Positions 14,146-64,000 of a stretch of 64,000 nt of DNA are shown here, in pieces. Source of the DNA: Callorhinchus milii (taxonomy: Eukaryota); the NCBI RefSeq assembly GCF_018977255.1, contig NW_024704742.1, positions 19,842,001 through 19,906,000 on the forward strand. The letters run 5' to 3'. The translations under genes were made by a program, and so were the position numbers. The notes under the pieces were generated by a model, which saw only the letters and a list, made by a program, of their open reading frames with translations, did no database searches and had not been told where the DNA came from. Numbering within the stretch: position 1 is the stretch's first letter; every line of letters begins with the position of its first letter.

Positions 14146-14529
14146 TGAATTAGTAATGAAATGTGCAGCAAGCATAATTATACTTTTGCCATAATTGACC
14201 GAGACTGAATTTTGTTTAATTAATGCGTGTTGACTAAGTAATTCTTGTTGATTAATAATAAATTATTTTCTTAAAATTGTTTCTGCAGGATTTGGAAATC
14301 GTTTATTCTTATCTTCATGGAATGGAAGCACTTTCTAACCTGAGGGAACACCAGTTCAGGTAAAATGAACTGCAAATAGAACTTGATTTTATAATTTAAA
14401 GGGGGAAAAAAAAGTAAGACATCATTAAGTTTAATGGGTTGTAACCAATCCATGGCTGCCCGAACTGGATAGTTCACTGTTGGTAATTATGCAGCAATAT
14501 CCAACTGACAATACCAAAATCAAGTATTT

Positions 14530-16470: not shown

Positions 16471-16527
16471 GTTAATGTGCAAAACCGTGAGATATGAAAG
16501 ACATGAAGCAAATGAAGTCCTGTACTA
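16471..16527 (+). CDS. RAPGEF2: RAPGEF2 internal coding exon A (57 bp, phase 2-2), (R)LMCKTVRYERHEANEVLY(Y)
   Basis: Polypyrimidine tract plus ttccAG acceptor and a GTAAGT donor at 16528. The translation matches the recalled RAPGEF2 long-isoform segment RLMCETVRYERHEANEVLYY and joins the next exon in frame. Confidence 0.95.
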
Positions 16528-28213: not shown

Positions 28214-28297
28214 CCCTGATGACATTGGTACCTGCTGGTATATACTACTGTCTGGATCCGTGTTCATTAAAGAGTCCATGTTTCTACCAAGAAGCAG
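28214..28297 (+). CDS. RAPGEF2: RAPGEF2 internal coding exon B (84 bp, phase 2-2), (Y)PDDIGTCWYILLSGSVFIKESMFLPRS(S)
   Basis: ttttcAG acceptor and CAG|GTATGT donor. It encodes a cNMP-binding-domain-like WYILLSGSV motif and is in frame with both neighbouring exons. Confidence 0.96.
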
Positions 28298-53351: not shown

Positions 53352-53427
53352 TTTTGGCAAGCGGTCTGCAGGGAGCCTGAGGCGTGGCTGTGAATGTATT
53401 GTACTGGAGCCTTCAGAAATGATTGTG
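53352..53427 (+). CDS. RAPGEF2: RAPGEF2 internal coding exon C (76 bp, phase 2-0), (S)FGKRSAGSLRRGCECIVLEPSEMIV
   Basis: ttcttccAG acceptor and GTG|GTAAGG donor. The peptide is visible inside ORF 53245..53472 and matches recalled RAPGEF2. Confidence 0.96.
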
Positions 53428-58201: not shown

Positions 58202-58369
58202 GTGGACTACATGGATGAAAATGAGGAATATTTTCAGCGGCAAGCTTCTCACAGACAGTCTCGCAGAAGATTTAAAAAAATTAACCAGAAAGGAGAGCGC
58301 CAAACAATCATTGACACTGTGGATCCCTACCCAGTCGGAAAGCCACCATTACCCAGAGGATACCACACG
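58202..58369 (+). CDS. RAPGEF2: RAPGEF2 internal coding exon D (168 bp, phase 0-0), VDYMDENEEY...KPPLPRGYHT, with GC donor
   Basis: T-rich tract plus tgcAG acceptor, then 56 codons matching recalled RAPGEF2. Similarity ends exactly at ACG|GCAAGT. Confidence 0.95.
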
Positions 58370-61300
58370 GCAAGTCTATTTACTGATAATTTCCTTGGGT
58401 TTAAATATTTTTAGAATGATAGCTTTTTATTTTCCCTCTGAGCTCCAAATTTCATCCATCAGCTGTAGTCAAAAACTATCTGCTTTTTGGCATCTACTAA
58501 TCCCACAGTGAGTTATGTCCAGCATGATTTGCGTTGGATGACCTGGGAATGTCTCTTCTCCTGTCTTCTTGGCTGTTCAGCAAGTATCCAATAGCTTGTC
58601 TATACTGTTGGAGGTGTTTTGAAGTGGCAAATAACATTTTTAGAGAAATGACTGAAGTAATTCCACCTTTCCTTCTACATTTCTGGTACATATAATTTTC
58701 TCTTTGTGATTCCAGTTTGTGAATGTAGTACGTATAGTCGAACTTTGTTATAGTTTTCATTACAATGGAGTTTTGCTTATAAATATGGGCACTAATATTT
58801 ACTAAACAAAAAATCCAAACTGCAATACAACAGTTTCTCATATGCTTAATAAATGGCTAACTTAATTGGCAGGCTTTCTGTGTGCAGGCAGAAGCACTGA
58901 CAATTGCACCCTGTTACATTGCTGATTAGGATTTTATGGACCTCGGCTACCAAATTATCACAAGACTCAACTGTAATGTGTTTTTATATTTACCCATAAA
59001 GAAAAGCGAGTAAATATATGGTAAATGTGAATAAAATTCTAAACTTGGAGGATTGAAAATTGTATTTGAAGTTTTCCACTTACCAGCAATGAGTTTTCAG
59101 GGAATGTTAGTTAGGTCATCAGAGACATATTTGTAACCCTATTTTATTTAACACAGCACTTCATGTTGAATCTGAAATGAAATTGAGGCCTGAAATTTCA
59201 CCCAGTGTTATGTTCTCAGATCATTTTGTCATAAAGTTTAAGAATGTGTGGAATTGTCAAGAAATTCTTCAATTCAGTCTTCAAAAGGAAGCTGTTTTAA
59301 AGGCCTGTCTCCTTCACTGAGCTTTGAATACCCTCTCCATTCTTCAATTTTGAATCACCCTCCCAGTTTAGGATCCCACTCCTTTACGTAGCACTTTGAG
59401 ACATTCTTCCTAACTGTTTGGCTCTATATAAGTGCAAATTGATCGATTTCTCACTCCCCCCGCAATTTCTTACAAAAAAACTGTTTTCCAAATTCACACT
59501 GAATTAAAATATATTCCACAGCTCTGCATGATATAAAATTTAAAACGTAAAGATGTTACAGACTGAAGTGGAATTTTGGACCTCAGAGGGTGTGTGTGTT
59601 TGCACGTGTGTCCACATGCACCTTGGGCAAGAAATAGAAAATTATATTGCATCAGTGGATAAGCCTTAAGCTGATGGATTTAAAAAAAGTTTTTTGACTT
59701 GAAATAAATATTCTGTTTCAAATCATTCCTCTTCATTTTTTTAAAAAAGTTATAGTAATGTCTTTTAGTTGCAAGGTATAGTTAGTAAATTAAGACTAAA
59801 GTTTCTGATATCTTTCTTTTTCTGTAAGCATTGGGTTTAAGTGCTCCTGTTGTTTGATTGATTCTTCTACATTACAATTGGGCTAATTTATCAGGACTCC
59901 ATTACAACAACAAATTGCATTTGTGTTGCGTCTTTCATGTCGGGAGGATGTCCCAAGGTGCTGGGCATTGAAGGAAAGGTTTGCACCCTAACTGGGGGCT
60001 GGAGTTGAGGGGTGGAGGGCAAATCGGGGTGGGCTGGAGGTGCGAAGGTGACCGAAGTTGTGGTTGAAGAGGAAGGTCTTAGGACATTGTATTTATTGTA
60101 ATTGAAAGGGAGCTAAATTCCAGTGATGCAGTGATGTCTTATGATATTTTTTGTTTGATTACTCTGAATATCTTCTTGTTCTGTTTGGAATGCACAGTGA
60201 TTACTATCTGTGCAGTCCAAGCAGAACAAGAAGATATTCTACCTACAGTGTGGCATAGTATTTCCTACTGCGAATGATGGTTAATTACGGACTCATTTCC
60301 TGTGAAAATTTCAAAACTGTTTGTCATTGCGGGAAGGTCTTCCACAGGAAGTTTGATAGCAACCTATTTTATCCAAGCAGGAAAAGTGCTCACGTCAATT
60401 TAGATGTTTTAACTAAGTGAGCAAGGAGAACATTGAAAAACAGCTGGCAGTCGTTCACTGGGAATTAAAAAAAAGGGAGATATGAAATGAGTGACCATCA
60501 CTGGTATTTTGAGGACTTTTAACCATTCTGAAAACTGGGGAGAGACTTGTGGTCCTAAAAACACCTAAACTGTTTTACTTCTATGTATGATTCAATCTAA
60601 TTTAAAGAGCTGGTGCTTATGTTGCTTGGATGATGATTGTGCAACCACAGTGTTCTCTCTTTTTATGCTTCTGACATACATAACTGCCCTTTCAAAGCAA
60701 TAGAACACAGTTAACACAACTGCAGTTTTGCGAATGTAAATTAGGTAACTGAATTTTCAGAAATGCAATGTTGTATATTGAATATTAGGAAGTCTTAAAT
60801 ATTAGATTCTTGTTAATAATTTGAAATCAAGACCCGCACACAGGAAGATGCGATTTTTAAAATAATCCTGAGTTATGGTATAATAAAAATATTGTCAGAC
60901 TTTTATTCTAGAGCAATGTGCTGCATAGTGTATCGGATGATGGTGAAACTAGCTGAACATGCGTGGTGTATATGAACAACAACAACAACAAGATTCCATT
61001 TATAAAGCGCCTTTCACGTCAGGAGGACATCCCAAGGCGCTGTACAGTTGGGTCATGACCCGAGCAGGGAGGAAATGGTCAGGGTGAGGGGAACTGTGCA
61101 TATGAACTGTGCATATGACCAATAAGTGACATTGTCAGTGTTGAAGCACTTTAAAATCAATGAATCTATGTATTTGAGGGCACTATGGGAGTGGTCAAGT
61201 GTCTGTTTAGTCATTGCATATTCTGCTAAGACTACAAAATAAAGATGATTCTTGCTGTGCAAATGTAAAATATGTAATACAGTAATTCAAAAGTTTAAGA

Positions 61301-61508
61301 TTTATGTTGTGCTTAGAAATAATGGATGCTACTATTTAAACTTGTGTATGCTTGGTTAAAATAGCATTTATTGATCTATTTAAAATGATTTGGGGAATGA
61401 GGGCTTCCAAGTTCATCATAAGATTGTAGCAATGGAATGAAAATTGAATCTGGTAATGTTCATTTTTTCCTTTCCTCTTTTATGGCATTCATTTAATTTG
61501 GCTGCCAG

Positions 61509-61526
61509 GTATGCGCTAAAGCAAAG
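61509..61526 (+). CDS. RAPGEF2: Probable RAPGEF2 18-nt microexon, VCAKAK (phase 0-0)
   Basis: Upstream pyrimidine tract, gctgccAG acceptor, GTA TGC GCT AAA GCA AAG, then AAG|GTATTG donor. It aligns with the recalled six-residue human segment ECTKSQ that follows RGYHT (C and K conserved). Confidence 0.72.
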
Positions 61527-61944
61527 GTATTGGGATTGTTGGGTGTAAACTCAACTAACCATGCTAATTGCTTTGTCATAGTTAGATCTGTAACCAACTG
61601 TCAATTAACAGTATTTTCTGGCTGACTATATGTGTCTACAGTTACAGATGTTCTCACGTATTGTGGAATGACAGATATAGCATTATATATTCTAAACGTT
61701 TGTAAAAAAANGACTCAACATTCTGTTCTGTTCATAGCATATGTGGTTCAATTTGTTTTTCTCAGTTCCTTCTGTATTTTTGTTTACGTGACTAGTTGAA
61801 AACAACTAGTTGAGTTTGCGTGTTATGATCTGAATCAATATTTCCTTAAAATATGATTGTTTCCTCCTGATGTAGTAGGATATGAAACTGCAATACTTTT
61901 TTTGTTCAGTAGAGATACCTCTTGAAGTTTAAATGATATTCCTT

Positions 61945-62648
61945 TCTACCCCACATTGGTGCCATGACCCGCACTGCCTTCCCCCACCTCCTCAGCATTG
62001 CCCGGCTCCGCTACTGTCTCACACCGCAGGCCGCCAAAACCCTCATACATGCTTTCATTACATTGAGGCTTGACTATGCAAACTCATTGCTTGTCGGCCT
62101 CCACAACTCCTTCCTCAATAAGCTGAGATCATCCAGAACTCTGCAGCCGGTGTCCTCTCCCACCCTGAGCTCTGCTACCCTATCACCCCCATCCTCGCCT
62201 GATTCCACTGGCTTCCCATTGCACAGAGGATACAGTTCAAGATCTTGGTGCTCACTTCAAAGCCCTCCATGGTCTTGCCCCCCCCACCTCTGCGAGCTCC
62301 TAATCCTCTACCGTCCTGCTTGCTCCCTCCGCTCAGCAGGCTCCAGCCTGCTTCACGTCCCCTGCCTCACTCGGCACACTATTGGCAGTCGGGCCTTCTG
62401 CCACTCTGCCCCTCCCTTTGGAACTCCATCCCCCAATCCCTCCCCCTCACCCCCTCCCTTGCCTCCTTCAAGACCCATCTCAAGACCTTCCTCTTCGACC
62501 ATGCTTTCGATCTCCCTGCTTCCCCCCCCGTCCGTCCTCCACCCTCCCAGATGCTGACCCCAGCTCGGGTCCGAAACTCTGTCTGTCCAGTGCCTTGGGA
62601 CATCCTCTCGATGTGAAAAGCGCTATACAATTTTAATTTTGTTGTTGA
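61945..62648 (+). mobile_element. L2-clade LINE 3' fragment
   Basis: ORFs 61964..62557 and 62245..62616 (HAFITLRLDYANSLL, LWNSIP, FKTHLKTFLF) and the tail. Confidence 0.9.
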
Positions 62649-63649: not shown

Positions 63650-64000
63650 GCTTCCCACGCTAACGAATGGAGTGCCTTTTATCAGGTCCTCCCTTGACAA
63701 CACCAACAGCCCGCTTGCTGGACTTCCTAACTCTTCCCTCCACAAGCTACAGTCCATTCAGAACTCTACAGCTTGTGTCCTCTCCCGCAGTGTGAGCCTA
63801 TCACCCCACATCCTTGCCCGGTTCCACTGGCTCCCTATCGCCTGAAGAAAATAATTGACTTGCAATGAATTCCCACCCTATCCAATCCATAGCTTAATTC
63901 AAACCAGATATATGCACTTACACATTTTTAAATCCCTAACCTACCTTTGACCTTCTAAAACCCTACCAACCCGTCTGCTTCCAATGCTCGCCAGGCACTG
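63650..64000 (+). mobile_element. Decayed L2 fragment
   Basis: LHKLQSIQNST and FHWLPI-like remnants. Confidence 0.65.

Follow-up and report, generated by a model that had tools for sequence, protein, structure and literature searches.

The elephant shark (Callorhinchus milii) carries an 18-nt sequence at positions 61509-61526 of the stretch of DNA analyzed here (the window, 64,000 nt in length), which, judged by sequence comparison, is almost certainly orthologous to the alternative 18-nt microexon that bony vertebrates have in RAPGEF2. The candidate is placed in the RAPGEF2 intron between the coding exon that ends in RGYHT and the LPADF exon, and by the same comparison the intron upstream of it is retained since the split of sharks and mammals. 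On the present analysis, we lean towards the view that the shark exon still works as an SRRM3/4-type cassette microexon, spliced into a minority of transcripts, mainly neural ones. The class of exon and its human and zebrafish orthologs are known already; the shark copy is absent from the gene models examined.

The gene in the window is RAPGEF2 of C. milii, as five exons were mapped by tblastn with the C. milii isoform P0122. Three of the five match at 100% identity over the whole match, and the variant HQFRLMCKTV is found both in C. milii and in the mapped exons, while being absent from the four other sharks and rays and the one mammal compared. Introns of approximately 2.1, 11.7, 25.1, and 4.8 kb separate these exons (Table 1). 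The LPADF exon, which is the next one of the gene, is outside the window and hence beyond position 64000. In sharks, LPADF is also reached from three or more alternative first exons (P0139, P0142, P0148, P0166), indicating that there are internal promoters in the intron that follows the microexon and that the microexon can affect the long isoform only. The RGYHT exon of the elephant shark is followed by a GC donor at 58370. This could reflect a change specific to chimaeras, or else an error in the assembly; in other vertebrates, read-through fragments, including P0001 of the whale shark, mostly continue with Val-Ser after RGYHT, i.e., with a GT donor. The surroundings show ordinary repeat content, with a near-palindrome of 74 nt and with interspersed repeats that occur in several copies in the window (60166-60239, 60974-61092, and 61937-62640), and a single N is present at 61711.

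Table 1. Features of the RAPGEF2 locus and of the candidate microexon (positions in the window)
Feature	Position	Strand	Remarks
Four further RAPGEF2 coding exons, long N-terminal isoform	14289-14359, 16471-16527, 28214-28297, 53352-53427		tblastn
RAPGEF2 upstream coding exon	58202-58369	+	168 nt, phase 0, ends RGYHT; tblastn of P0122
Non-canonical GC donor (GCAAGT) of RGYHT exon	58370-58375	+	sequence inspection
AG-free zone	61430-61506	+	77 nt; 17-60 nt at four ordinary acceptors compared
Conserved intronic block, elephant shark and equids	61450-61494	+	tblastn 13/15; includes the pyrimidine tract and a candidate branch point
Candidate distant branch point TAAT	61454-61457	+	around -53; inferred from heuristic pattern match
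Polypyrimidine tract	61459-61481	+	displaced ~27 nt from AG; best 20-nt pyrimidine fraction 0.95
TGC	61503-61505	+	at -6; equid read-through not conserved as TGC
Acceptor AG	61507-61508	+	overlaps donor-like CAG/GTATGC
Candidate microexon	61509-61526	+	18 nt, VCAKAK, begins GT; positional ortholog of ECTKSQ/ECTKPQ/ESSKSQ/ECVKAQ
Candidate microexon donor GTATTG	61527-61532	+	mammalian read-through models go on Val-Leu or Val-Met, compatible with same donor

The preliminary description of this DNA had reported a pyrimidine tract, an AG, 18 nt encoding VCAKAK, and a GTATTG donor, and all of these are present as described. The frame is kept as well, as it had claimed: the insert of 18 nt follows a phase-0 exon of 168 nt, with AG and GT intact and no stop in between. 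The closest AG upstream of the acceptor in the window sequence is found at 61428. Two features were missing from that description, the GC donor at 58370 and the GT start of the candidate exon. Due to this GT start, a GT donor is rebuilt on joining of the candidate to the upstream exon, and the hexamer GTATGC has A at + 3 and G at + 5. A GT start is also seen in two of the four ordinary exons checked. One exon with a GT start, at 16471, rebuilds a donor-like site too, yet it is included in the aligned C. milii model.

The architecture around the candidate is rare, although not unique, within the window. We scanned the 64 kb for an AG-free zone of ≥ 60 nt, a pyrimidine fraction of ≥ 0.9, a TGC, an exon length of ≤ 27 nt that is a multiple of three, a GT donor, and no stop. 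The candidate was the sole match on the plus strand, against one match on the minus strand, which served as control. With looser thresholds, three look-alikes appeared on the minus strand, and architecture alone is therefore no proof of an exon.

More decisive is the comparison with mammals. The models of five equids extend the ECTKSQ exon 26 codons into its upstream intron. The resulting read-through peptide, which was compared as translated gene models rather than as aligned DNA, matches window positions 61450-61494 at 13 of 15 residues (tblastn, E = 1.1e-10), the next-best match in the window being at 0.011. The spacing from this block to the exon is equal within one base in shark and equid, and ~ 45 intronic bases upstream of the candidate still align with horse. 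The 18-mer encoding VCAKAK is four base changes away from the coding sequence of ECTKSQ, all four non-synonymous and falling within six codons; only a fraction of 0.0002 of 20,000 random 18-mers from the window come as close. Taken together, the upstream match and the short codon distance identify the candidate as positional ortholog. The match to human ECTKSQ proposed in the preliminary description is thus borne out by the position of the junction and by the equid block, and its view of the exon as ancient holds, with the element common to cartilaginous fish and mammals.

On the downstream side, carnivore models and the fragments P0003 and P0031 continue past the exon as Val-Leu or Val-Met, compatible with the GTATTG donor, while the downstream read-through peptides of carnivores and equids gave no significant match in the window past that donor. 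These mammals vary the exon boundaries themselves. In carnivore and equid models (P0037, P0097, P0104, and relatives), the microexon is lengthened by 22 codons via a later donor. The equid extension of 26 codons uses an earlier acceptor; the nearest upstream AG of the shark lies at a similar distance (79 nt) and is out of frame. Two metagenome scans for the intronic block yielded no vertebrate copy, the first with 0 matches and the second with chance matches only: four metagenome matches share just a pattern of 21-26 bases without flank and were taken as chance.

Protein models from other vertebrates offer a view of how the exon is used. Among the 120 listed of 660 matches to the upstream exon, the junction reads either RGYHT-LPADF or RGYHT, six residues, and LPADF. 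Inserts of six residues were found 72 times among 455 proteins, all of them from bony vertebrates or unnamed records, with ECTKSQ in 29, ECTKPQ in 26, ESSKSQ in 10, ECVKAQ in 6, and ECTKQQ in 1. The peptide hence varies among bony fishes too. The first Glu and the last Gln are invariant in all 72, and both are changed in VCAKAK of the shark. A Glu at the start means that the exon never begins with GT in those proteins, and the difference between Glu and Val at the first residue is exactly the base that gives the shark exon its GT start. Overall, the shark peptide keeps 2-3 of 6 residues. The flanks keep 34-39 of 40, and the 24-nt microexon of the same gene keeps 8 of 8 (2/6 versus 8/8, Fisher p = 0.015).

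Models of bony vertebrates commonly include the exon, with differences between lineages, and the counts represent a pattern rather than a measurement, as isoforms are non-independent and cluster listings partial. Among models with both anchors, the insert is present in 10/11 for lungfish, 10/12 for eels, 7/9 for bowfin, 9/12 for mammals, 6/13 for cyprinids, and 3/9 for a bird-led cluster. The exon is skipped in 11 of 12 syngnathid models. In Syngnathus acus (P0448), a four-residue insert, ECNK, stands in place of the six. The syngnathid models suggest independent shortening or loss of the exon in this lineage. All rows of sturgeon (three) and Xenopus (two) skip the exon, these rows having been drawn by a query of the skipped form. 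The 15 mormyrid proteins fall outside the anchor pattern of the insert tally; the four of them that were checked comprise one insert (ECPKSQ), two skips, and one other first exon.

In cartilaginous fishes, the picture is uniform. Of 91 near-full-length proteins (the short fragments P0001 and P0004 were left out), 72 have the two anchors adjacent, 18 lack an anchor owing to other first exons or skipped exons, and one has an unrelated insert of 36 residues. None of the 72 isoforms with both anchors, which come from 18 species among the matches listed, includes the 18-nt exon; the same isoforms carry the 24-nt KKKWRSLG microexon in 57 cases and skip it in 15. All 11 RefSeq isoforms of C. milii among the matches listed (X1-X11) skip the 18-nt exon. 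The listed members amount to 15 of 29 for the C. milii cluster and to 15 of 63 for the largest shark cluster. An insert of the shark type was found neither among 69 shorter protein matches nor among the 120 listed of 1103 near-length matches, where the query favours skipped forms. That gene predictors would miss the exon had been anticipated, and indeed 0 of the 15 C. milii models listed include it.

The likely counterparts in human and zebrafish are known to respond to SRRM3/4. In the S3/S4 Data of PMC7935315, an 18-nt exon of RAPGEF2, HsaEX0052261 (chr4:159243774-159243791), is among 314 SRRM4 targets in HEK293 cells, its PSI rising from 73.12 to 100 upon SRRM4 overexpression. For the 18-nt zebrafish exon DreEX0060842, the data of PMC9303857 give 84.34 in wild-type eyes at 5 dpf versus 32.81 in those of srrm3 mutants, with a rise from 23.55 at 24 hpf to the wild-type value. 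The supplements of PMC8187152 contain no RAPGEF2 row. We infer that both events represent the ECTKSQ-type exon, by length and position and not by sequence. For the human event, this follows from its location, 100 kb away from the 24-nt exon and at lower coordinates, together with the downstream location of the other six-residue indel; the single other such indel seen, VYCVTA at residue 1584, is downstream of the 24-nt exon. Human RAPGEF2 is taken here to lie on the plus strand.

The suggestion that the exon is regulated in neurons is thereby strengthened in one respect, as SRRM3/4 boosts the 18-nt RAPGEF2 exon in human and zebrafish if the exons are correctly identified, and the SRRM4 response of microexon orthologs is reported to be conserved from shark to mammals (10.1101/2024.09.17.613571, where RAPGEF is absent from the main text). 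The neural label, however, has to be loosened. According to a published table, HsaEX0052261 has PSI values of 32.5 and 34.4 in normal breast and kidney, and with 73 in the HEK293 control it is not confined to neurons. The shark exon resembles the human and zebrafish exons in gene, length, and preservation of frame. It differs from them in that they are commonly included and annotated, whereas the shark copy is in none of the examined models. It also starts with GT (Val) instead of GA (Glu), and a GC donor precedes it.

The same gene harbors a second, 24-nt microexon, KKKWRSLG (DreEX0060838), which lies outside the window, is unchanged between shark and mammals, and has been annotated in sharks. 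It is like the 18-nt exon in being SRRM4-responsive according to the published data, but it is a different exon. As described in PMC12626420 and PMC13281805, it was the 24-nt microexon of rapgef2 that was deleted in zebrafish, and the published hyperactivity phenotype belongs to it and not to the 18-nt exon. We therefore rejected a zebrafish behavioural phenotype for the latter.

Assignment of the shark candidate to the SRRM3/4 (eMIC)-dependent class of neural microexons can be considered feature by feature. Both share a length of 3-27 nt in multiples of three, a long AG-free zone, a displaced pyrimidine tract, a UGC between tract and AG, and a conserved upstream intron. Unlike the class, the shark exon encodes a poorly conserved peptide, and its inferred human ortholog is substantially included outside neurons. 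The UGC had been offered as the reason for SRRM4 control, and this argument is weak. A TGC lies within 20 nt of 58 of the 232 comparable pyrimidine-preceded YAGs in the window (chance rate 0.25) and of two of the four ordinary acceptors checked. Moreover, the shark TGC at -6 has no such counterpart in horse: the equid segment has no TGC within 60 nt of the acceptor, and no choice of codons permits one closer than -63. Given the chance rate and the absence in horse, we rejected the UGC at -6 as a proof of SRRM4 control in its own right. Among SRRM3/4 microexons, 74-79% reportedly have the element, which is not an absolute requirement (10.1101/2024.09.17.613571). It is weak evidence, and the long AG-free zone, the displaced tract, and the conserved intron, which are described as signs of microexons in PMC12871342, are better.

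How a weakly included microexon would operate here can be outlined as follows. With branch point and pyrimidine tract far back in the AG-free zone and with a modest donor, the exon would be skipped by default. SRRM3/4 would promote early spliceosome assembly and so allow the exon to be spliced in, with the UGC helping without being strictly required. In the long N-terminal isoform, inclusion would insert six residues behind residue 175, ahead of the Pfam cNMP domain, which spans 320-391 (lungfish numbering). In the shark, basal inclusion may be lowered further by the donor-like sequence that overlaps the acceptor and by the weakness of the upstream GC donor. This would explain the absence of the exon from gene models. 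Our U1-pairing estimates are -7.2 kcal/mol for the donor-like overlap, -5.7 for the exon's own donor, and -4.6 for the GC donor; these are crude, ignoring U6 and non-canonical contributions, and employ what we take to be the U1 motif.

A working microexon is supported by the retention of the conserved upstream block, both splice sites, the 18-nt length, and the open frame. Against it stand the gene models, with the exon in 0 of 72 cartilaginous isoforms and the 24-nt microexon in 57 of them, as well as the peptide, with 2-3 of 6 residues kept and the invariant Glu and Gln lost. It also counts against this reading that the VastDB events are tied to the exon by length and position only.

The GT start invites another explanation, which we regard as unlikely: the element could be a recursive splice site (RS-exon). 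The upstream exon, which has the GC donor, would first join position 61509, the rebuilt GT donor would then jump to the LPADF exon, and the 18 nt, spliced out again, would be absent from the mRNA. A single base at the start, GT versus GA (Val versus Glu), would then decide between a zero-length ratchet point, as in the shark, and a coding microexon, as in bony vertebrates. The + 3A and + 5G of GTATGC speak for such a site, as does the Glu, hence never GT, at the start of all 72 six-residue inserts. A conserved acceptor side combined with a relaxed peptide and 0/72 inclusion is the pattern expected from it, and in human minigenes a GC-to-GT change at the exon start created an RS-exon (PMC6224609). 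The RS-exons described by Blazquez et al. 2018 (PMC6224609; Sibley 2015 cited there) share with the shark element an acceptor followed by a donor-like GT hexamer and a second donor shortly downstream.

In contrast to RS-exons, the rebuilt shark donor has no clear advantage in strength over the one downstream, and it is near the upstream exon, merely 3.1 kb from the upstream donor. By the crude U1 estimate, the rebuilt site reaches -4.4 kcal/mol, weaker than the exon's own donor (-5.7) and the rebuilt site of exon 16471 (-5.6), whereas recursion is efficient only if the rebuilt site wins over the downstream donor, and it is normally kept in check by the EJC (PMC6224609). The GT starts at two of four ordinary exons also count against this explanation. 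A literature search returned nothing on RAPGEF2 with recursive splicing. We give little credence to the idea that the cartilaginous-fish element is a recursive site with neural-microexon architecture, toggled to the bony SRRM3/4 coding microexon by one base at the second position (GT versus GA). Its evolutionary corollary is doubtful in the same degree: a microexon born from, or dying into, a ratchet point, with the shark GC donor traded for the rebuilt GT.

It is similarly improbable that the element is a silenced relic, ancestral to jawed vertebrates and disused in cartilaginous fishes, with the upstream block persisting by slow evolution or through another role, such as a protein-binding or regulatory element. 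The lack of inclusion in models of 18 cartilaginous species and the four non-synonymous changes in six codons agree with disuse. Some bony lineages lack the exon in their models too, as the syngnathids do (11/12 skips and one four-residue form). However, the AG, the GT, the length, and the frame are all intact, and ~ 45 intronic bases align with horse, at a depth between shark and mammal where neutral intron is normally not alignable. Mammalian read-through peptides from downstream are without match past the donor, unlike the upstream block, which also argues against a relic. Least credible by far is a chance splice-like sequence unrelated to the ECTKSQ exon: the one to three minus-strand look-alikes under the same criteria and the peptide identity of merely 2/6 would suit it, but the E = 1.1e-10 equid match (13/15) of the adjacent intron, which occurs in the expected intron and with the expected spacing, effectively refutes it, with the codon-distance chance of 0.0002 pointing the same way.

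Our search of the literature on microexons of the elephant shark and other cartilaginous fishes returned nothing on the shark RAPGEF2 18-nt exon. The comparison presented here traces the upstream splicing element of an SRRM3/4-responsive microexon in RAPGEF2 back to the last common ancestor of jawed vertebrates and adds an exon that the examined C. milii models lack. It also exposes a notable mismatch: the acceptor region is strongly conserved, yet the exon behind it is in no shark or ray model examined and has gained, or kept, a GT start. If recursive splicing were true, this locus would constitute a one-base natural experiment on the origin or loss of a neural microexon.
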